NCBI GenBank assembly: GCA_016283195.1
Contig: JAEEML010000063.1
Span: 1-57,604 of the forward strand
DNA: 57,604 bases
Direction of reading: 5' to 3'
Source of the DNA: Deltaproteobacteria bacterium
GTDB lineage: Bacteria > JAEEML01
In this document: piece after piece, positions 11,240 to 56,250 of the stretch
Layout: each line of letters opens with the position of its first letter
Numbering within the stretch: the first letter of the stretch is position 1
Translations under genes and position numbers: made by a program
Notes under the pieces: generated by a model
What the model was told of the DNA's origin: nothing
Databases searched by the model: none
Seen by the model: the letters and a program-made list of their open reading frames with translations, nothing else

Positions 11240-14200
11240 CTATTTCTTGCGGCAAACAAAGGTTAAATTGGTGCCGAGCCCCAGTTCCGGCAGCTCTTTT
11301 TCTACAGTAAAGCCCGCTGTTTCCAGGAGCTTTAAATACTCACTTTTGCTTAAAAAGGTGAGCTCGTGGGCGCTTTTGTTGTGGCCGATGCCGGTAGCCA
11401 ATTTTTCAAAAAATTTCACATTTTTGTAGCCATGGCTCTCATCGCGGCAGCCATCGCGGAAGAGTAAAATGCCGCCCTCTTGCAGATGCAGGGCAATTTT
11501 CTTAAAAATTTCCAGCTGCTTATCTTGTGGCCAGTAGTGCGTGACATCTATCAAAAGAGCGCCGGCGGCTTTTTCCGGGAAATTTTCACTAAACATATCG
11601 CCGCATATATAGGTGGAATTTTGCGGATACATACTGTTTTTGGCGGCGATGGCCAGCTTACCGGCGTCATAATCAAGAGCCCAAATTTGCCGCAACGGGC
11701 TCTCATAGGCTAAAATATTAGCCATAAGGCCATAGCCGGTGCCGATATCCAAAATAGTGCCTGCACTTGGCAAGAGGCCGGGGAGGTGCCTAAAAATGGG
11801 GTCTATGGCCATTTTCCAGAAAATATACTGCTCATTATAAGGTCCGGTATAGGCATAATGAGCCATTAGCTCACGGCGAAAAGCCGGAGTTGCCGCCAAA
11901 TTACTGCGCGCTTTTTCATAGGCGCTGTTTATGATTTCCCGGAAATGGCTGGCCGCCTCTCTTGAAGTGCCTGAGAGTGTTTCCGGTGGCATAATAACCA
12001 CTTCTATAGCAAAGCGGCCGATAAACGGTGAGCCCTTGGCAATAGAAGAGCGGCTTTCAGCCAAAAGCACTGGCTGAATGGGAATATCTTCTTTAAGGGC
12101 CAGCTCAAATGCCCCTTTATGGAAACGCCCCAAAGTGCGCTCTATTTGCCTGCTGCCTTCGGGAAATATGAGAATATTTATCCCGGCTTTTATTAGCTTT
12201 TCGGCCCGCTCCAGTAAATCGTGGTTGTCATCTACCAGTAAAAAGCCGGCTTTGCGCACCATAAAGCCCATAAAAGGCACATCCCAGACCCATTTTTTTA
12301 CTACCATGCGCTGCTTGGGCAAAAAGGCTTCCAAAATGACGATATCGAGCATGGATTCATGGTTGGCTATATAAATGGCCGGGCTGGATTTTTGTAAATA
12401 TTTTAGGCCGGTTAAGTTTATTTTGCCAAATGGTATGGCGATAAGGGCTAGGCGGCAGATAATTTGCAAATATTTATTTAAGGCCGTTTCCAGTTTATCT
12501 TGGCGGCGCCGCAAAATAAGCCACAAAAGCGGGTAGAGAATAATAGTGCCCAAGATAGCACCGAGTATAAATACAGTGTAACCACAGAAAGTATTTATTA
12601 TTTGTACTAAAGTGACTGGCGCTTTGCCCGGTGCGGTGGCGGCGATGGGGCGCACAAAAAGGGGCACGGCCAGGAGTGCTGCTATCATGCCGCTGGCCAT
12701 GCCGATGGCGGCAGTAAAGCCCACGGAATTCATAGCCGGGTGGCTGGCAAGAGCCAGTGAACCCAAAGCGGCAATAGTGGTGAGTGCCGAAAGAATGATA
12801 GCCCCACTGGTGGTGCCTTTGCTGCTGCTTTTGGCCCCCTGGCGTGTTTCCAGCATATCGTTTATGACAAAGACTACATAATCAACCGACATACCAAAAA
12901 CGAAGACTACAAAGAGGCTGCTCATTAAGTTTATCGGCACGCCTATGTGGCCCATGATGCCGAAAGTCCAAGCCATGGCGCTGCCCATGGCATATATCAC
13001 CAGGAGGAGAAGCTCGGCCCGCCCCAGAGCCAAAAAGACGATAAGACAGACAACCAGTAGCGAAACAAGGCCGAAAGTCCACATAGAAGAAGTGACGATT
13101 TTTGAGAGATGATTTGTGTATAACTGGCCATGATACCAATGTAATTTCTGGAGATCAGCGCTGAGAATATCCACCGCTTTTTGGGCGTTTTCCGGGCTAA
13201 GGGTAACTCTTGTCAGCCCTAAATACTCGCCGCTTGGCCCTTTGGAATAATAGGCCTTAAAGACATCTGGCATGGCCTCTTTTAGCTCTTCGGGAGTTAT
13301 TAGAGCGCTCTCGGCTGAAGTTAGGAGACGGCTCATATATTGGGAAAAAGCCTCTTTTTTAAAGCCGGCTTCCTGTGCTGCTGCCGGCAAATAGTCGGTT
13401 AAACCGTCATTTTGGGCCTTAGCTATAATTTTGGCAAAAGCAGCGCGGTGTTCTTTTTGCAAATTTTCCGGCGGCAGGAGCATAGCCGGCGTACTAAAGT
13501 TGGAAATGGTAGCGTTTTTACGCAGCTTTTGCAAAATGGGCAGCAGTTTTTGTTGCTCTTTTGCCACTTCATCCATAGTGGGGGCAGATACTACTAAAAG
13601 CAGCTCACCCAAGAGTTCTTGCCCCCAGCGCGCCGTGATAGTGTTCTCCTGCTTTAGTGTTTTTGGCGCGGTGCCGCTGAGGTGGCGCATATCGCCATCG
13701 ATTTGCACTTTATTTATGCCGGTGAGTGCCACTATCCAGAGGGTAAGAACAATTAGCGCCGGCCATTTTTTATGGCTGTCATACCAGCGAAAGTAGCGCT
13801 CCATGAGGTTATTTAGTGCCAGTTTCGGGGGGCGTTTCTCTGAGCTTACTGCCGGCAAAAGATGGGGCAGGATAAAAAGGCTGAAGAACATGGCCGAAAG
13901 AATGCCCAATGAGGCCACAACGCCCAGCTGGCGTTGTCCCGGCAACATGGAAGTATTTAGGCACAAAAAGGCGCTGATAGTGGTGGCGGCGCCAATCATT
14001 ATGGGTGTGGCGAGGGGTGCCAGAATAGCTGCCGTCTTTTGCCCGGCGGCGGCGCAGTCGTAGCGGTATAAAATATGAATGGCGTAATCGACGGAAATAC
14101 CGATGAGCACCGCGCTAAAGCCCACTACTACGCCCTGAATTTCCGAGCTAAATAGCGAAAAGATGGCGAGCCCCAGTGCGCCGCCGAAGATTACCGGCAA

Positions 14201-15100
14201 ATATGAGTAGAAAATCATATACTTGCGTCTATAAGCCAAAAATACCAGCAAAGTGATGGCAATGAGGCTCACGGCCACAGTGAGGCCGATATCACGGCGG
14301 ATCATCACATTATTATCGCGCACGGCCGGGTGGGCGCCGGTGTAATTAACCACCACGCGCCCCTTGGGCTTATCCTTTAGGAGAGCGGCAATGATTTCAT
14401 CAACTTTATCGAGCATTGGCGCCGTTTTGCTGAAAACGGTGGCCGGGTAATCGGTCTGGGCTACCAGCATAATAGCCCGGCGATCGTTACTGACAACGGC
14501 GCCCTGATAAAGCTCATTGGTCATGCCGCCTTGCAAAGTGAGGAGCACCGGCCAATAGAGGCGGCGCAGGTTCAAAGGGTCGCTAAGAACCATCTGTTTG
14601 GGCAGCTCTCCGGGAGTTTCCATTAAAAAGCGGCGGTTTTGGGCCAGTTGCTCGCTTATGGCCTCTTTGGTCAGGAGTTTGGGCAGCTCTTCCAGCTGTT
14701 CCGGCCCGGAAAGCACGGGATAATGAGTGGCCAGTAAGTTAAAACCGGCGCCCACCAGCTCGTCATCTGTTTTGTAAGTAATAGTGCTAAAAAGTTGGCT
14801 GGCAGCGAGCTTTTCGTAAAGTTCATCAGCTATTTCAATTAGTTCGTCCAGTTCGCCGCTGGCCCCGTCATTAAAGGCTACCTCCATAAAGAGGCGGTTA
14901 TTATAATCAAAATTGCCATAGATGAGCAGCTGATCGGCCACAATGGAATCATCGGCCGGGAGCAAGGCTGTGATGCTCTCTTCCATCTCCAGCTTCTGGC
15001 CCACATAAAGAGAGAGGGCGGTAATAAGCGCTGTGAGCCCTAAAACCAGGGCGCGCCTTTTAGCCAGTATATTATATATAAAAGTGAAAAAGCTCTGCAT
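11240..15100 (-). CDS. Trifunctional MMPL-family transporter / lysophospholipid acyltransferase / class I SAM methyltransferase
   Basis: Two MMPL TM blocks (GISVDYAIH, GMSVDYVVF); PlsC motifs NHESMLD, FPEGSR, FHKGAF; SAM motif ILDIGTGYG. Confidence 0.9.
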   Translation of the reverse strand: MQSFFTFIYNILAKRRALVLGLTALITALSLYVGQKLEMEESITALLPADDSIVADQLLIYGNFDYNNRLFMEVAFNDGASGELDELIEIADELYEKLAASQLFSTITYKTDDELVGAGFNLLATHYPVLSGPEQLEELPKLLTKEAISEQLAQNRRFLMETPGELPKQMVLSDPLNLRRLYWPVLLTLQGGMTNELYQGAVVSNDRRAIMLVAQTDYPATVFSKTAPMLDKVDEIIAALLKDKPKGRVVVNYTGAHPAVRDNNVMIRRDIGLTVAVSLIAITLLVFLAYRRKYMIFYSYLPVIFGGALGLAIFSLFSSEIQGVVVGFSAVLIGISVDYAIHILYRYDCAAAGQKTAAILAPLATPIMIGAATTISAFLCLNTSMLPGQRQLGVVASLGILSAMFFSLFILPHLLPAVSSEKRPPKLALNNLMERYFRWYDSHKKWPALIVLTLWIVALTGINKVQIDGDMRHLSGTAPKTLKQENTITARWGQELLGELLLVVSAPTMDEVAKEQQKLLPILQKLRKNATISNFSTPAMLLPPENLQKEHRAAFAKIIAKAQNDGLTDYLPAAAQEAGFKKEAFSQYMSRLLTSAESALITPEELKEAMPDVFKAYYSKGPSGEYLGLTRVTLSPENAQKAVDILSADLQKLHWYHGQLYTNHLSKIVTSSMWTFGLVSLLVVCLIVFLALGRAELLLLVIYAMGSAMAWTFGIMGHIGVPINLMSSLFVVFVFGMSVDYVVFVINDMLETRQGAKSSSKGTTSGAIILSALTTIAALGSLALASHPAMNSVGFTAAIGMASGMIAALLAVPLFVRPIAATAPGKAPVTLVQIINTFCGYTVFILGAILGTIILYPLLWLILRRRQDKLETALNKYLQIICRLALIAIPFGKINLTGLKYLQKSSPAIYIANHESMLDIVILEAFLPKQRMVVKKWVWDVPFMGFMVRKAGFLLVDDNHDLLERAEKLIKAGINILIFPEGSRQIERTLGRFHKGAFELALKEDIPIQPVLLAESRSSIAKGSPFIGRFAIEVVIMPPETLSGTSREAASHFREIINSAYEKARSNLAATPAFRRELMAHYAYTGPYNEQYIFWKMAIDPIFRHLPGLLPSAGTILDIGTGYGLMANILAYESPLRQIWALDYDAGKLAIAAKNSMYPQNSTYICGDMFSENFPEKAAGALLIDVTHYWPQDKQLEIFKKIALHLQEGGILLFRDGCRDESHGYKNVKFFEKLATGIGHNKSAHELTFLSKSEYLKLLETAGFTVEKELPELGLGTNLTFVCRKK

Positions 15101-15532: not shown

Positions 15533-16384
15533 TCAATTGGCCAAGTTGCCTACTTTTTGGCCATATTTAATGGCGGTGCCGATTGCCTCTCCATCAAGAG
15601 AGACGCGGCCTTTTTCAAAAAGCAGTACTACAGTTGAGCCGAGATTAAATACTCCGAGTTCCTGGCCTTTGGCCACAGGGTGCTCGCCAGCGGCATAATC
15701 TTTTTTTATAGTATCGCGGCACTTTTTGCGGTTGGTGACAAAATCGCCGTCATAAGCCAGAGTGATTTTTCCCACCGAAGTGGCGCCGATTTTTACGACA
15801 GCCACCAGGCCGACCTCGGTTTTTAAGAGGCTGATAAGCCGTTCATTGCGCACAAAGAGGTCGGTATGTACCTCGGTTGATTCTTTGAAAACGGGCAAAA
15901 GCCCGCCGGGAATGTGAATGGCTTTAATAACTTCGCCGGCTATGGGGCTATGAATGTGGTGGTAATCGGCCGGGCAGAGATAAAAAGTGGCAAAAGTGCC
16001 GTCGCGAAAGCGTTCGCCTAGCGCATCATCGCCTAAAAGGCGGTTTACCGGATAAGTAACACCTTTGGCTTGCACTGCCATTAGGCCGTTAAGTGTGCCG
16101 CATTGGCCATAAGCACCATCCACCGGCGAGACAATGGAGCGGGTATCAGCGTCTATTGGCCTCGCGCCTTCTTTTAAAACGCGGGTAAAAAGGGCATTTA
16201 CCGATTCATAACCGCCCGGCGGAACAAGTGCTTCCTCGGTGCTTATATGCAGCAATTTTTTGGCCATAAAGCAGTAAAATTTAACTAAAAATTTCGGGCG
16301 TTTAATGCTGGCGAACCAGCCCACCAGCCGGGAAAGAGAATTGTGGGGCAGATGAGCTACCCAGATGGCAAGTTGTCGTTTCAT
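15533..16384 (-). CDS. psd: Phosphatidylserine decarboxylase proenzyme
   Basis: FTRVLKEGARPID, SPVDG, YLCPADYHHIHSP, RNERL, FNLGSTVVLLF (LGST autocleavage motif); start MKRQ after GGAG. Confidence 0.93.
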   Translation of the reverse strand: MKRQLAIWVAHLPHNSLSRLVGWFASIKRPKFLVKFYCFMAKKLLHISTEEALVPPGGYESVNALFTRVLKEGARPIDADTRSIVSPVDGAYGQCGTLNGLMAVQAKGVTYPVNRLLGDDALGERFRDGTFATFYLCPADYHHIHSPIAGEVIKAIHIPGGLLPVFKESTEVHTDLFVRNERLISLLKTEVGLVAVVKIGATSVGKITLAYDGDFVTNRKKCRDTIKKDYAAGEHPVAKGQELGVFNLGSTVVLLFEKGRVSLDGEAIGTAIKYGQKVGNLAN

Positions 16385-16454
16385 GGCTACTCCAACAAAA
16401 GCGCTACCGGGCCTTTTAACATGTATGCAAGCAGGAAACAAGAGGAAGACTTAT

Positions 16455-16487
16455 CGGAAATAGCGGAACGAGACAAAGCTTTGGTGG
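16455..16487 (+). repeat. 33-bp direct repeat, copy A
   Basis: CGGAAATAGCGGAACGAGACAAAGCTTTGGTGG; 29/33 identical to 17698-17730. Confidence 0.85.
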
Positions 16488-16598
16488 GAGGCAGATTAGA
16501 TGGCTAGGGCTTTTAATTGGGTTAGAGAGAGGTATTATACGCTTTAAGAATATCTCTCCATTTTTAGCAATGCTCCTCACCCGGTCGCCGCCCACTTG

Positions 16599-16700
16599 GA
16601 CCTCACCCCACAAAATATTTGTAAATTCAAGTTGATTGGCCCCTCCCCACTGTGGGGAGGGGCGAATGGATGTAATTTCTTTTATGGACAGGGTGAGGTC
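16599..16700. repeat. 102-bp palindromic repeat (REP/MITE-like), copy 1
   Basis: Ends GACCTCACCC...GGGTGAGGTC; central perfect hairpin GCCCCTCCCCAC-T-GTGGGGAGGGGC; 94/102 identical to 56149-56250. Confidence 0.9.
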
Positions 16701-16717
16701 AAATGTGGTGAGGGCGG

Positions 16718-17719
16718 CTAGTCTTTGAGGCAACGCACGGAAAAGGTGCTATACTTAATGTTGCCGTACAGGTCCGCATCGTCATTAGCTATGTACAGGC
16801 TGTAGGCTAAGTCGGTATTGTTGTGCTCCGTGGCCGACCAGAAGCGGGCGCCGTAACCGAAATTGCGGTAACTGCGGCCGTTGTAGTAGCCAGCGGGCAG
16901 GGCGCTAAAGCCATAAGCATCTGCTCCGCTAGCAAAAGCGGATGCTCGCAGATTTTGCGAACGTTCTGCAACCGACTTGCCGGCAGCATTTAAAAGGCTT
17001 TTAAAATCAGCTTTTTTCGATAAATGCCAGCCTTTAGGGCACACTTTCATGGCGTCCTCCCATGTATAAAGGCAGCCATATTTAGCCACAAAATCCGGAT
17101 CTTCATCAGTATTAGCATCACAGGTAACCGGTGTGCCATCTGTTGCTTGGTCGGTAGCCATGTTCTCGGCCATCCAGATTTGCTCGCCAATTTTGGTTAC
17201 TCTATAAACATTGCCTTGCGTATCGGCCATATAATCGCTGGTGGTGTCGGCACAGTTTTTGGCTAAATCCCAGTGTTCATCACAGGATTCGCAATTGCCG
17301 TCGCCGTCCGGCCCCAGGCTAGGGGTGCCATGCTCACAATTTGTCTCATTGCTGTCGCATTTTTGGCCAAAGTAGCCATCTTCGCAGCGAGTACAGGTGC
17401 TAGAGCCATTTTCACAAGTGCCGTGCTGGCAGTCACAAGTTTGCTCTTCTTCATCGCTTGCGGCATCGCTTTGGCCATCGGTATCACTGGCAGCGTCACT
17501 TTGGCTGTCGTCACTCTTGGCATCACTTTGAGCGTCTTTGTCTTTGTCTTTGTCCTTGTCCTTATCGGTTTTGCCGTCTATCGGCTTTTGTTCCTGGTTA
17601 CCGGGTGTAGCGGGCTTTTCCTCTTCGTGAGCGCCGCAACCGATAGCCAAAAAGATGGCCAGCCCGGCAATATCACTCTCTGAAAGGCCGGTTGCGGCGG
17701 AAATAGCGGAACTAGGCAA
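16718..17719 (-). CDS. Cys-rich (EGF-like) lipoprotein with C-terminal Fibrobacter succinogenes major paralogous (FISUMP) domain; start uncertain
   Basis: LAIGC lipobox, DK/QSD linker, EGF-like Cys block, then YRVTKIGEQIWMAENM, YGCLYTW..A..VCPKGWHL, GFSALPAG, FWSAT, FSVRCLKD. No ATG or SD at the 5' end. Confidence 0.85.
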   Translation of the reverse strand: MPSSAISAATGLSESDIAGLAIFLAIGCGAHEEEKPATPGNQEQKPIDGKTDKDKDKDKDKDAQSDAKSDDSQSDAASDTDGQSDAASDEEEQTCDCQHGTCENGSSTCTRCEDGYFGQKCDSNETNCEHGTPSLGPDGDGNCESCDEHWDLAKNCADTTSDYMADTQGNVYRVTKIGEQIWMAENMATDQATDGTPVTCDANTDEDPDFVAKYGCLYTWEDAMKVCPKGWHLSKKADFKSLLNAAGKSVAERSQNLRASAFASGADAYGFSALPAGYYNGRSYRNFGYGARFWSATEHNNTDLAYSLYIANDDADLYGNIKYSTFSVRCLKD

Positions 17720-17730
17720 AGGTTTTGTGG
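17698..17730 (+). repeat. 33-bp direct repeat, copy B
   Basis: CGGAAATAGCGGAACTAGGCAAAGGTTTTGTGG; 29/33 identical to 16455-16487. Confidence 0.85.
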
Positions 17731-20123: not shown

Positions 20124-20223
20124 TCAAAAGAAGTTTTTGTTGCAATATTTTTAATTGAGTATCTATGCTAGGTGCACGGCTTGGGCCGCTGCATCTGAGA
20201 CCTGTCTTTAATTGGAGGAAAGC

Positions 20224-20661
20224 ATGGTCGCAAATTTTGAAGATTATAACGGTGAAGAAGAGCTTATTTCTTATGGCCCGCGGCGCGATGATTATTCTAC
20301 TTTTGAGGAAGTCTATAGCGTCGATGACGATGAGAATGAAGAAGATGAAGACGAAGATGACGACGACGATGACGACGACGACAATGACGACGATGACGAC
20401 GATGATGAATATGTAGATGATGATTTTGATGACGAAGAAGATGATGATTTTGTAGATGATGATGATTATGACGACATCTATGATGATGGCGGTGAAATAT
20501 TAGAGCTTGATGACGGCTACTCCGGCAAACGCTTTGTCAAAGACTACGATGAAGACGAAGAAGACGAGAACGAAGACGGCCTCTATGAAACCAGTGAAGA
20601 CGAAGAGGAAGACGAAGACAATTTTGACGGAGATGATAACGATTACCTCGATGAGGAGTAG
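20224..20661 (+). CDS. Extremely acidic (Asp/Glu-rich) low-complexity protein
   Basis: GGAGGA RBS then ATG 20224; 145 aa, roughly 55-60% D/E by manual count; mixed GAT/GAC/GAA codons. Confidence 0.75.
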   Translation: MVANFEDYNGEEELISYGPRRDDYSTFEEVYSVDDDENEEDEDEDDDDDDDDDNDDDDDDDEYVDDDFDDEEDDDFVDDDDYDDIYDDGGEILELDDGYSGKRFVKDYDEDEEDENEDGLYETSEDEEEDEDNFDGDDNDYLDEE

Positions 20662-29860: not shown

Positions 29861-31963
29861 CTAGCCCTTTAAAGCCAAAAAAGCATTTATATTTTGCCTG
29901 ATTATGGGTGCGAGTTCGGCTGTTAGCGCGCTAATATCGCTGCACTTATCAATGGCTTCCAAGAGATCTTTATGATTCTTCTCAAAATCATCGGTAAGAG
30001 CCTGGCAGAAGGCACCGACATCGGCCACTTCAATGGCTCTAAGGTAAATTTTGCCCGTTTCGCTGTCTTTTGTCATGGCGGCATAAAGTTGCAAAAGCTC
30101 TTTAGGCACGCTCATCGGCTGATATTTGGTTTGTTTTAAAACTTCCACCAGCCGCGCTCCTTCGGCCAGGCGCTCCTGGGTGGCTTTATCCAAATCGGTG
30201 CCGAATTGAGCAAAAGCCGCCAGGTCGTTGTATTTAGCCAAAGAGAGGCGCAGCGAACCGGCCAATTTTTTCATAGATTTGCGCTGGGCGGCACTACCTA
30301 CGCGGCTAACCGAAATACCCACATTGATAGCCGGGCGGTTGCCGGCGTAAAAAAGGTCGGCTTCCAAATATATCTGGCCATCGGTGATGGAGATAATATT
30401 AGTGGGAATATAGGCAGTTACATCGCCGGCCTGGGTCTCCACAATGGGCAGAGCGGTGAGTGAGCCGCCGCCCATCTTGTCACTCATTTTGGCTGCCCGC
30501 TCCAAAAGGCGGGAGTGCAAATAAAAGACATCGCCGGGAAAAGCTTCGCGGGCCGGGGGGCGGCGCAGGAGCAGGGCCAGTTGCCTATAGGCCACGGCGT
30601 GCTTGCTGAGGTCGTCATAAATAACCAGCGCATGGCCGCCGTTATCGCGATCTTCCTCGCCTATTGCTGTGCCGGTATATGGTGCCAGATATTGCAAAGT
30701 AGCCGGATCGGCAGCCGAAGCGGTTACTACAGTGGTATATTCCATAGCGCCGTTAGCTCTTAGCGTATCCACCACCCGGGCCACAGTGGAAAGTTTTTGG
30801 CCGATAGCCACATAAATGCAGTGAACACCCTGGCCCTTCTGGTTGATGATGGTATCAATGGCGATTGTGGTTTTACCGATTTGCCGATCGCCGATGATTA
30901 ACTGGCGCTGGCCGCGGCCGCTGGGGATCATGGCGTCAATGGCTTTAAGGCCCGTTTGCAAGGGCTCGCACACCGGCTGGCGTTTTACGATACCCGGAGC
31001 TTTAGACTCCATGGGGCGCGTTTTTTCGGCTTTTAGCGGCGGCAGGCCGTCTAAGGGCTCGCCCAGCGCGTTAATTACTCGGCCCCAGGTACATTTGCCC
31101 ACAGGCACCGAGGCGATGGTGCCGGTACGGCGCACCGTTTCACCCTCGGAAATTTTGGTGGAATCGCCCATAACGGCCACTCCAACGCCCGCTTCCTCAA
31201 TGCTCAGAGTTAGCCCTTTAACGCCGCTTTGAAATTCCACAAGCTCGCCCAGCATAACGTGCAAAAGACCATGTATTTTGGCAATGCCGTCGCCGGCCGA
31301 GATAACTGTACCCACTTCCGATACATCGTAGCTTTTAACCGGCCTAGCAATTTGCTCGCGCAAAATACTAATAATATCAGTAGTATTTACCTCAATGCTG
31401 CCGCTGGTGGAAGCCGTATATTCGGCGAGGTTTTGGCTGATGCGCTGTTTTAAACGCTCGGTTTGCCCCAAGATGGAATCATCTATCAAGAGATCACCCA
31501 GGTGCAATACCACGCCGGCGCAAAGTTCTGGTTTTACTTCCTCTTTGATTTCGATATGGCACTCTAAAATCTTTTCAAAATGCTCTCTTATAGCGCTTTT
31601 TTGCTCGCTGGTTAAGGCAAAGGCTGTTTCCACCTTAAGCTCAAGAATATTATTCAGCTCATGGTGGCGCTTTAAGAGGGCTGGCACAAAGAGTTCTAGT
31701 TTTTGAATGGTGTTATCATCCAAAAGAAGAGTAATAATATCAGTAACTTCTTTGCTGCTGCCGAGCTCTTTGGCTATAGTCTCGATGAGCATTTCGCGGC
31801 TTTTTAAACTGAGGCGCGGATCTTCCACCATGGAGAGAATTTCCGGGTCATGTAAAAGCACTTGCCATTTTTTTAGCTCATCCAGAGCAACTTGCAATTT
31901 TAAATTGGCTTTACCAATGGTGGCTAAAAAGTCATTGGCATAGACCTCTATACTTTTCATCAA
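29861..31963 (-). CDS. atpA: ATP synthase delta-alpha fusion protein (AtpH-AtpA)
   Basis: First ~176 aa are delta/OSCP-like ([32 protein letters not shown]); a short linker leads into full alpha ([37 protein letters not shown]) in one 700-aa frame. Confidence 0.92.
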
Positions 31964-53005: not shown

Positions 53006-54619
53006 TTAGTTCTGGCTCTTGATGCAGCGTGCGGAATAGCCGGCTTGTTTGGAAAAATAGCCCACATATATATCGTTGCCGGTAATTTTTAGAAAATACG
53101 CATAGTTGCTATCGTATGGTGAAGAAGACCATAAAGTGGCTGTTTCACCAAATTCACCATACTTCGGATAAGCTTGATACCAGTAATCACCGGCGGGAAC
53201 GGCCGTAAAGCCATAAATATCTTTGCCGCCATTCCATGTGCTAACACGTAATTTTTGGGCCGCAGTGGCATTTTCGCCGCCGAGATAAGCGATAAGTTCT
53301 TCAAATTCTTCCTTGGTTGGTAAGCGCCAGCCGCTGGGGCAAAATTCGCTGGCGCTGGCTGTAGCCCAATCGTAAAGAAGGCCATAATTATCCATGTTAT
53401 TTTGAGCACCACCCGGATAATACTTACTATCGGTTTCGCGCTTATAATTTTGGGCCATCCATTCCCGGCAGTCAATCACCACTGTGTTATATTTTTTATT
53501 ACTATCATGATCATCTTCTAGTTTACCGGTTGTGCCATCGGCGCCTAATTTGCACTGGTCGCATTTTTCGCCGAACCTATTTTTATTTTTGCACTGGTCA
53601 CAATTAGTGCCGGTAAAGGCGGCGGCGCACTCGCTGCAATCTTCGCCGTCCCAACCTGTTTGGCAAGTTCCGCTTTTGCAATTGCCGCTCTCTTTATCCA
53701 GCGTGCCGTTTTGGCAGAGAATTTTTTTGTCGCACTTGCTGCCGGTAAAGGTGTCGGCGCACTCATTACAATCTTCGCCCGTCCAGCCTGTTTGGCAAGT
53801 TCCGCTCTTGCAGTGGCCGCTTTCATCGTCTAATCTGCCGTTTTTACACAAAATTTCTTTATCGCAATCGGCGCCGGTGTAGTCATCCACACAAAAATTA
53901 CAGAGCGGCCCGGTCTTGTGCGGGTTTTGACATTCATCACAGTTTATGCCGACCCAGCCGGCTTCGCAGCTATCGGCGTGGCAATTGCCCGTCAGCGGAT
54001 TCAATAGGCCATGGCTGCACTTGATTTTTATGTTGCACTTTAAGCCGGCGTAGAACTCCCCGCAGATAAAACATTCGCCATTGCCGCTCCGCCCCTCGTG
54101 GCAGTATTCTTTATCGCCGCAGTCACATTTTTGGCAGTTTTGTCCATAATAGCCCGGCTTACACTCGGCACACTCGGCGCCGGTAAAATTAGCCGCACAT
54201 TCCTGGCAATTCTCGCCGCTAAAGCCGATGGCGCACTCAGTGCAATTTTCGCCGCCGCGGTGGCCGCTACAGGCGCAGCGGCCCTGGCCGTTACATTCCT
54301 GAAATTCGCCGCTGCAACTGCCGCGCTTTACCCCCTTACTAACGCCTTCGCAGATATGCCTTTCCGAGCATATAAGGCAATCGTCGGCGCAATCGTCATC
54401 CGTCTGGCAAATAGCCGCGCATTTGCCGTTGGGGTAGCCGCTTTTTTCTATGCAGAGGTAGCCTTCCGGGCATTTTCCGGCGGTATCGCAGGCCTGGCCG
54501 GGTTTACCTTCCGGCAATGGGCCATCGGCCTCGGCGTCGGGGTTTTCGTCCAGTAAAGCCATATCGCAGGCGGCGAGATTAAGGGCAAGCAGTAAAAGAT
54601 ATATTTTTGCCTGTTTCAT
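53006..54619 (-). CDS. Cys-rich laminin/EGF-like repeat lipoprotein with C-terminal FISUMP domain
   Basis: LAAC lipobox, many C..G(F/Y)xG.xC units, YNTVVIDCREWMAQNY, YGLLYDW, CPSGWRLPT, GFTAVPAG, YSARCIK. Confidence 0.9.
   Translation of the reverse strand: MKQAKIYLLLLALNLAACDMALLDENPDAEADGPLPEGKPGQACDTAGKCPEGYLCIEKSGYPNGKCAAICQTDDDCADDCLICSERHICEGVSKGVKRGSCSGEFQECNGQGRCACSGHRGGENCTECAIGFSGENCQECAANFTGAECAECKPGYYGQNCQKCDCGDKEYCHEGRSGNGECFICGEFYAGLKCNIKIKCSHGLLNPLTGNCHADSCEAGWVGINCDECQNPHKTGPLCNFCVDDYTGADCDKEILCKNGRLDDESGHCKSGTCQTGWTGEDCNECADTFTGSKCDKKILCQNGTLDKESGNCKSGTCQTGWDGEDCSECAAAFTGTNCDQCKNKNRFGEKCDQCKLGADGTTGKLEDDHDSNKKYNTVVIDCREWMAQNYKRETDSKYYPGGAQNNMDNYGLLYDWATASASEFCPSGWRLPTKEEFEELIAYLGGENATAAQKLRVSTWNGGKDIYGFTAVPAGDYWYQAYPKYGEFGETATLWSSSPYDSNYAYFLKITGNDIYVGYFSKQAGYSARCIKSQN
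53609..53866. repeat. Intragenic tandem duplication, 132-bp (44-aa) period
   Basis: Two copies of CDK.ILC.NG.LD.ESG.CKSGTCQTGW.GEDC.ECA..FTG, also similar at the DNA level. Confidence 0.85.
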
Positions 54620-54628
54620 AATAGTTCC

Positions 54629-55607
54629 CTAAAAGGTGATAGCCAGCACCAGTGAGCTCTCTTCTTTGCCGATAGCCGGTAGCACTGTTACTTGCGTTTC
54701 CTTTAACTTAGCCAGTTTATGCTTGGTGCGCACATGCAAAGCGCCCAAAACAATGGAAGAGATAACAGCGGCACTGCCCAGGGCAATAAGTACGGATCCG
54801 GCGGCCTGGTTTTTCTCCCAGGCATTTTCCAGATTTTGTAAATATAACATGCTATCCAGCATTTGCGGATTATTATAGCGCTCATACTGCTTATTGGAGG
54901 CAGCTAAAAAAAATCGACCCGCCGATAAAGCCGGTGAGCCCGCCGACGAGGCCGATAGTTAAACTGCTGGCCAGAAAGGCCTTCTTTTGCTTCTCATAGT
55001 GGATAATACTCTGCCGACGCTCCGCCGCCAGCTCGGCTTCCCCCGAGCCCATAACGCAGCGCACCGAGAGGTAGCTCACCTTTTTGCCGCTATTGACCGT
55101 GACTTTGTTGCTATCCACATAGAGGCCATAGGCCTGGCCGGCGTTGCGCTCAGTATTTGCCCAAAAATAGGCGGCGCTGGCAAAGGGGGCACAGCCATCC
55201 TTATCACAATAGCCCACCGGCAAAGCGCCAAAGCCGGTGCTGTTTTTAGCTTCATCCCACTTTGGGTGCCTTACACTATCCGAAGCTCTGATACCTTTGC
55301 CGATGGTGCCTATGAGGCGGTCAAATTCTACTTTTGTCGGCAGGTGCCAGCCGGCAGGGCAGACTTTACGCGCATCGGCCCAATTATATAAATAGCCATA
55401 TTCATCGGGACGCTTGCTCTCTTTGTAATCAATATCGGCGTTTATGTATTTCATATTTTCGGCAAGCCAAGTCCCGCCGCCAATTTGCACTGTTTTATAG
55501 GTATTGCCGTCGCGGCTATCGGTAAAGGAGCCGTATTCCTGGGCCAGCGCCGGGGCCGCGGTAAGCATAAAAGATAATAACGCGGTTTTTATCAAAAAAT
55601 TATACAT
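54629..55607 (-). pseudogene. Secreted FISUMP-domain protein with C-terminal membrane anchor, split by a frameshift in a T8 tract
   Basis: Signal peptide, FTDSRDGNTYKTVQIG..WLAENM..SVRCV. Removing one T at 54906-54913 joins ORF 54891-55607 to ORF 54629-54862 (..GGSIFLAASNKQYERYNNPQMLDS..LVLAITF). Confidence 0.75.
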
Positions 55608-56104: not shown

Positions 56105-56148
56105 CCGCAAGGTCTATTTTTCGCTTCTCTCACCAGCCGGCCACATTT

Positions 56149-56250
56149 GACCTCACCCCACAAAATGTTTGTAAATTCATGAAGATTGGCCCCTCCCCAC
56201 TGTGGGGAGGGGCGAGAGGATGTAATTTCTTTTATGGACGGGGCGAGGTC
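56149..56250. repeat. 102-bp palindromic repeat (REP/MITE-like), copy 2
   Basis: Same orientation as, and 94/102 identical to, 16599-16700; identical central hairpin. Confidence 0.9.

Follow-up and report, generated by a model that had tools for sequence, protein, structure and literature searches.

A candidate DGR-written variable repeat at the 3' end of a FISUMP-family gene, flagged by a switch to C-ending codons

Was the 3' end of a FISUMP-family gene of lipoprotein type written by a diversity-generating retroelement (DGR), a hypermutation cassette, that is located elsewhere? The question is raised by a switch to C-ending codons at the end of this gene, which lies in a 57,604-nt stretch of DNA (the window, i.e., the whole stretch that was analysed), a complete contig. 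According to the original prediction, the gene end is the remote target of a trans-acting DGR that diversifies a family of surface lipoproteins. As a tentative reading, which we hold to be possible and prefer to the others, the DNA of codons 270-333 is a DGR-written variable repeat (VR), either active or orphaned, of the CLec2 class, which in Wu et al. 2018 (PMC5758913) comprises VRs overlapping DUF1566, DUF823 or Fib_succ_major (51 DGRs, 14%). On this reading, a template repeat (TR) rich in Asn codons (AAC/AAT) would be copied into RNA, the RNA copy would be reverse-transcribed with random bases opposite its adenines, and the cDNA would take the place of the gene's 3' part, starting at the ALPAG motif and ending with the stop codon. 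The outcome would be NNC/NNT codons at loop positions, with scaffold codons left unchanged. The DGR element would be located outside the contig, in which case the gene is a remote target, or would have been lost, leaving an orphan VR. The gene and its relevant parts are as follows.

16718-17719, minus strand: FISUMP-family gene encoding 333 aa (ORF list and Pfam PF09603), with a putative TTG start
16724-17194, minus strand: Fib_succ_major (C-type-lectin-like) domain, residues 176-332 (Pfam match)
16721-16912, minus strand: VR-like segment rich in C-ending codons, codons 270-333 (codon statistics and alignment with the CLec2 VR/TR span)

The interval originally proposed for the variable region, 16718-16903, is right, and the gene is to be read on the minus strand. 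On this strand the interval starts at coordinate 16903, which is the first base of codon 273, i.e., the A of ALPAG. The 333-aa protein scores 102.7 bits against Pfam PF09603 (Fib_succ_major; TIGR02145 family) at a cut-off of 33.9. N-terminal of the domain, a lipobox LAIGC (Cys28), an acidic linker rich in D, K, and S, and a Cys-rich module of the EGF-like type are found. Within the domain, C54 and C157 are invariant across 23 aligned FISUMP sequences. An AlphaFold2 model of the domain, built on this 23-sequence alignment, reached a mean pLDDT of 94.7. In a Foldseek comparison with the PDB the matches were weak, the best one being the C-terminal domain of Legionella Lcl (8q4e, E = 0.018, probability 0.90); snake C-type lectins and formylglycine-generating enzyme (FGE) came next. 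Among viral models, phage FISUMP domains matched strongly (E = 4.6e-11), and a sequence search of the PDB yielded no match. The model and the weak PDB matches are compatible with a C-type-lectin-like fold of the FISUMP domain, of which codons 270-333 are predicted to encode the C-terminal, ligand-facing part.

The gene is flanked by a divergent undecaprenyl-diphosphate synthase gene (uppS) and, on the same strand, by a phosphatidylserine decarboxylase gene (psd). Upstream of psd, a 1286-aa ORF with MMPL transporter, acyltransferase and methyltransferase domains (11240-15100, minus strand) adjoins an amine-oxidase-like flavoprotein; judged by this arrangement, the region may represent a lipid-modification locus. 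Elsewhere in the window, an ORF for a zeta-toxin-like P-loop kinase is present at 1697-2266 on the minus strand (Pfam E = 7e-11). An extremely acidic, low-complexity coding stretch is situated at 20165-20661 on the plus strand; it consists of GAT/GAC/GAA repeats with 18 overlapping copies of a 66-nt family and has no Pfam match.

The shift to C-ending codons, on which the original prediction was built, is borne out by the counts. The last 62 codons (stop included) contain seven TAC and one TAT with C at 58% of the third positions, compared to one TAC, five TAT and 33% in the 272 upstream codons of the same gene, and to 167 TAC, 396 TAT and 31% in the 35 other ORFs of the window. A preference for TAC of this degree occurs in no other ORF of the contig. 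None of the 14,401 sliding windows taken from 36 ORFs has more C-ending codons than the segment, with its 36 out of 61 (mean 19.5, sd 5.1, runner-up 33), and 23.3 +/- 3.5 such codons are expected from its amino-acid sequence and the codon usage of the window (simulated P = 3e-4). The amino-acid-conditioned z of the segment, 3.6, is the third highest in the contig after stretches in the genes for glycogen synthase (3.8) and ATP synthase beta (3.7), and is to be read against an overdispersed distribution with an empirical sd of 1.39 instead of 1.

The 95 codons of the domain that precede the segment are poor in third-position C (C3), with 20 C-ending codons versus 31.3 expected. The switch, calculated as the z of the 61 codons minus the z of the preceding 95, amounts to 6.4 and ranks first among 21,962 window pairs (runner-up 5.36, sd 1.63), the window sizes of 61 and 95 codons having been chosen to fit the FISUMP gene. 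By Fisher test, 36 of 61 versus 20 of 95 C-ending codons differ with P = 2.6e-6. A two-rate changepoint model has its maximum likelihood before codon 270, with support for codons 267-275, at the junction of GFS and ALPAG. At 4/6-fold sites, the segment shows a C fraction of 0.58 versus 0.43 in the contig and an A fraction of 0.03 versus 0.13, at an unchanged G fraction of 0.23; the rise is thus specific to C-ending codons. The gene as a whole shows three compositional blocks. Selection of preferred codons at conserved sites was considered as an explanation of this pattern and rejected, because the first half of the domain, to which the YGCLYTW motif belongs, is conserved to the same degree but biased in the opposite direction, being C3-poor and using TAT.

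Two further genes of the family are located in the window, both recognised by Pfam Fib_succ_major.

53006-54619: FISUMP paralogue, 537 aa
54891-55607: FISUMP paralogue

Their TAC:TAT ratios of 8:18 and 4:10 agree with the preference for TAT that had been noted for these genes. In their segments homologous to codons 270-333, C-ending codons number 18 and 26, respectively, versus 20.8 expected in either case; both segments are TAT-rich with contig-typical codon usage, and their loops carry K, E, and Q. Since neither homologous segment exhibits the C-ending signature, it is not a general FISUMP property. The notion of a diversified FISUMP family finds no support in the window, as both other genes show ordinary codon usage in the segment concerned. 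In the Cys-rich EGF-like region of the 537-aa paralogue, a tandem 132-nt duplication (53597-53860, copies 78% identical) indicates a putative module expansion in the FISUMP family.

The position of the switch corresponds to a boundary described for DGR targets. In the portions of Wu et al. 2018 used here (PMC5758913 and its supplement), TR-VR homology starts at (F/L)P(A/L)(A/S)G codons in seven of the 14 displayed CLec2 alignments. These seven are t003-t009 of t001-t014, long-form alignments with TRs of 173-194 nt, in which the homology continues via (Y/F)WS(S/A) to VRC(V/L)(K/R). The FISUMP gene reads ALPAG ... FWSA ... VRCLKD, with 180 nt from codon 274 to the stop; the segment aligns motif for motif with the CLec2 VR/TR span from (F/L)PA(A/S)G to VRC(V/L)(K/R). 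It forms the 3'-terminal part of the ORF within the Fib_succ_major domain, co-linear with CLec2 VRs, and the codon changepoint (267-275) coincides with the motif that starts TR-VR homology in t003-t009.

The literature background of the original prediction, i.e., that Fib_succ_major/DUF1566 domains are DGR targets and that targets may be remote, is documented in the same paper (PMC5758913). CLec2 targets form category 'd', with the Legionella lipoprotein LdtA as an example and further cases in Bacteroides and Ornithobacterium rhinotracheale, and CLec2 templates contain 41-54 adenines, mostly in AAC/AAT codons. Non-adjacent targets are given there for 45 of 372 DGRs, and an Ornithobacterium DGR with a target annotated as Fib_succ_major serves two additional ones at distances of 319 kb and 1451 kb. 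The part of Roux et al. 2021 (PMC8144416) used here contains nothing bearing on FISUMP.

By manual count, 29 of the 32 family-variable positions of the segment are NNY codons, 21 of them NNC. K, E, Q, M, and W occur at none of these 32 positions, versus a pooled rate of 10.3% across 159 homologous segments (P = 0.031; 19 of 128 proteins had no regex match and were left out). Four of 160 segments are free of K, E, Q, M, and W at variable positions, and three of them belong to other homologues. The residues at the variable positions are reachable from AAY codons, which is suggestive of a DGR target, but not specific. Adenines are distributed over codon positions 1, 2, and 3 as 16:23:3. Avoidance of adenine where it is avoidable is not significant, with 4 of 32 A-containing codons versus 6.2 expected. 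Of the family-conserved scaffold positions, 14 of 29 are C-rich as well (manual count), and therefore AAC-derived codons alone are an insufficient explanation of the pattern.

In line with the original prediction, neither a template nor a reverse transcriptase was found in the window. Sliding 60-mers of 16718-16930 were compared with every position on both strands, counting non-adenine mismatches only; the 57.6-kb contig contains no template-like copy, the best non-self 60-mer having 11 non-adenine mismatches, and an adenine-degenerate pattern matched only itself. Neither a reverse transcriptase (RVT) nor Avd is encoded among all 44 ORFs of at least 150 aa in the contig. In a search of genome contigs, a fully adenine-degenerate pattern of 66 letters matched at least 126 loci; all matches listed are poly-A runs, the least A-rich of them with 59 of 66 A, and the source gene's own copy is not among them. 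For an Asn-rich, template-encoded peptide, a short-protein search yielded eight matches, all of which are ordinary FISUMP fragments. A HMMER search with the 65-aa tail against 1.84 billion representatives resulted in 1342 matches at E <= 0.001. As a weak negative, the best 150 of these 1342 matches include no Asn-rich template-like peptide; apart from the protein itself, they are ordinary multi-domain FISUMP proteins of at least 248 aa and at most 57% identity. DNA similar to 16700-16930 was absent from phages and limited to four chance-level matches (E = 0.7) in plasmids, and tblastn of the domain against phages gave two records at 28% identity, which are uninformative.

Stretches of poly-A, hundreds to thousands of bases long, occur in many public MAG contigs (e.g., loci L035 and L015). 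These are probably assembly artefacts, and they defeat any search pattern that allows A at every position.

The sequences around the gene contain two types of repeats.

16596-16700, no strand given: palindromic intergenic repeat (MITE/REP-like), copy 1, about 105 nt (repeat comparison and folding)
56146-56250, no strand given: palindromic repeat, copy 2, 91% identical to copy 1 (repeat comparison)
17698-17730: 33-nt direct repeat, upstream copy, 88% identical to 16455-16487, which includes the TTG at which the FISUMP gene putatively starts
16455-16487: downstream copy of the 33-nt direct repeat, situated in the psd leader

The GC-rich hairpin that had been noticed after the stop codon does exist, as an 11-bp GC stem at 16638-16663 (131-nt fold, dG -53.1, z -4.96), but it does not stand as a DGR feature. 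Its core begins at least 55 nt past the FISUMP stop codon and belongs to the palindromic repeat, which consists of terminal inverted repeats and the hairpin core and is intergenic in both copies. From this architecture, the repeat looks like a MITE or REP element. A DGR cruciform was considered for the hairpin and rejected, since the second copy of the dispersed repeat is located away from any VR; no FISUMP 3' end lies beside copy 2. Due to its membership in a dispersed repeat and its distance from the stop, the hairpin is not counted as DGR evidence. In the portions of Wu et al. 2018 (PMC5758913) used here, a GC-rich inverted repeat just downstream of the VR is given for only 34% of DGRs. An Rfam search of 16380-16950 revealed no family at threshold (whalefall-1 reached 17.6 bits versus a gathering score of 37), and 3' of the FISUMP gene no terminator-like site was found on the gene's own strand.

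The two copies of the 33-nt direct repeat enclose both the FISUMP gene and the palindromic repeat. The sole in-frame start of the gene is the TTG inside the upstream copy, which replaces the basic MKK... leader with which homologues open; the leader of the 333-aa ORF is devoid of basic residues. Because the repeats bracket the gene and the upstream copy supplies its start in place of the leader, the arrangement suggests an insertion or rearrangement of the gene between uppS and psd, and the gene may be 5'-truncated. Since a basic signal-peptide leader like that of the homologues is missing from the ORF, export of the FISUMP protein may not occur.

In the protein collection, identity to the 333-aa protein does not exceed 56% overall and 62.5% in the tail; no protein of at least 90% identity was found, and its 90% cluster has a single member. 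Homologues share the GFSALPAGYY..., FWSATE... and FSVRCLKD motifs with the FISUMP tail, and the nearest relatives differ by segment. For the EGF-like module the nearest is P0002, which also ranks among the closest for the mid-domain (79% over 68 aa) but is missing from the top 8 for the C-terminus, for which P0005 is the closest relative at 62.5% identity. P0070 and P0005, homologues whose contigs are short, likewise possess tails of DGR-like appearance: K, E, Q, M, and W are absent at variable positions of the P0070 tail, and P0005 shares, at the identity given above, the scaffold of the FISUMP gene tail.

For the ATP synthase beta subunit of the contig, the best matches in the protein collection are 72-73% identical and carry Anaeromyxobacter/Myxococcota labels, and no close relative was found with this protein. 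In the F1 operon, a 700-aa ORF (29861-31963, minus strand) unites a delta (OSCP) domain of ATP synthase, residues 13-174, with a complete alpha subunit, an apparent delta-alpha fusion.

Writing of codons 270-333 by a DGR, the reading that we tentatively prefer, is favoured by the strongest intragenic switch of the contig, the boundary at the CLec2 start, the residue spectrum, and the contrast with the two paralogues. Against it stand the missing TR and reverse transcriptase within 57.6 kb, two equally C-rich housekeeping stretches, the C-rich scaffold, the adenine avoidance that falls short of significance, and the atypical leader. For the more specific proposal of a remote target of a trans-acting DGR, the codon switch, the CLec2 boundary and the AAY-reachable residues hold up, and the contig provides neither TR nor reverse transcriptase; a currently active remote target appears unlikely. 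An orphaned DGR-written repeat is about equally unlikely. In its narrower form, a template-less orphan VR whose FISUMP binding face was written by a DGR outside the genome (e.g., on a phage or plasmid, acting in trans) or by one since lost, we consider it decidedly improbable. Alternatively, the domain may be an ordinary, non-diversified FISUMP domain, in which loops rich in Tyr, Asn, Gly, and Asp reflect the binding-surface composition of the family and the excess of C-ending codons lies at the upper end of the codon heterogeneity that is normal for the genome. This explanation is a serious one, albeit doubtful. The family-typical amino-acid motifs of the tail agree with it, as do three other homologue segments in which K, E, Q, M, and W are likewise missing, the contig without TR or reverse transcriptase, and the two housekeeping genes that reach the same conditioned z in a distribution with an sd of 1.39. 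It does not account well for a switch that is the extreme of the contig, for a boundary that coincides with the CLec2 TR start, or for the equally conserved first half of the domain, which is C3-poor and TAT-using; moreover, ATP synthase beta, in spite of its conditioned z, has a TAC:TAT ratio of only 5:7.

A mosaic origin, in which homologous recombination at the conserved GFSALPAG codons brought in a 3' part from a FISUMP donor of a different genome with C-rich codons, a part that has not yet drifted to the local codon usage, would explain the three compositional blocks of the gene and the segment-wise change of nearest relatives from P0002 (EGF-like module and middle) to P0005 (C-terminus). 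The rearranged locus, with direct repeats around gene and palindrome and the native leader missing, is in agreement with such an exchange as well. From a generally GC-richer donor, a rise of G-ending codons would be expected, and these are not raised; donor-like DNA was found neither in phages nor in plasmids, no protein exceeds 62.5% identity to the segment, and recombination would not predict variable positions that are free of K, E, Q, M, and W. We regard a mosaic gene as credible, though unlikely.

FISUMP/DUF1566 VRs and remote targets as such have already been published (Wu et al. 2018, PMC5758913). If the segment was DGR-written, a remote CLec2-type target would be added in a lineage without close sequenced relatives, as judged from an ATP synthase beta that is at most 73% identical to any protein found, and the founding FISUMP family would be tied directly to targeted hypermutation of surface lipoproteins. 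In this case a VR could be detected in the absence of its template, by a changepoint in codon usage that falls on a conserved motif. Such template-free flagging would be useful in fragmented metagenome assemblies, in which template and target are located on different contigs. If an orphan VR is the true state, DGR footprints would be readable from a single sequence by the codon changepoint at ALPAG, and it is tempting to speculate that parts of the large FISUMP paralogue families stem from retro-mutagenesis. If no DGR was involved, what remains is an ordinary paralogue of the FISUMP family whose composition is odd, and the gene is of little interest beyond that.

Compared to known systems, the segment differs from CLec2 DGR VRs in that no template repeat, reverse transcriptase or Avd is known for the FISUMP gene, and in that its downstream inverted repeat belongs to a dispersed element. 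Furthermore, the host is not a relative of Bacteroidota or Legionella, its ATP synthase beta being Myxococcota-like (72-73%). Like CLec2 VRs, the segment occupies the extreme 3' end of a lipoprotein-type gene over the same motif span, with a similar length (180 nt here, 173-194 nt there) and with loop codons rich in NNC/NNT, and remote targets are documented for CLec2 systems (PMC5758913). With the non-diversified FISUMP paralogues (TIGR02145/PF09603) of Fibrobacter and its relatives, the gene shares the domain family, the conserved Cys pair, the motifs and the lipobox, as well as membership in a multi-copy family with shuffled N-terminal modules. The two paralogues of the window (53006-54619 and 54891-55607) are unlike it in their contig-typical, TAT-rich segment and in the K, E, and Q of their loops. 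The Treponema denticola DGR with TvpA-type targets, compared here by its description only (PMC5758913), offers a parallel for the proposed remote target, since a single DGR serves several distant lipoprotein genes on the chromosome.
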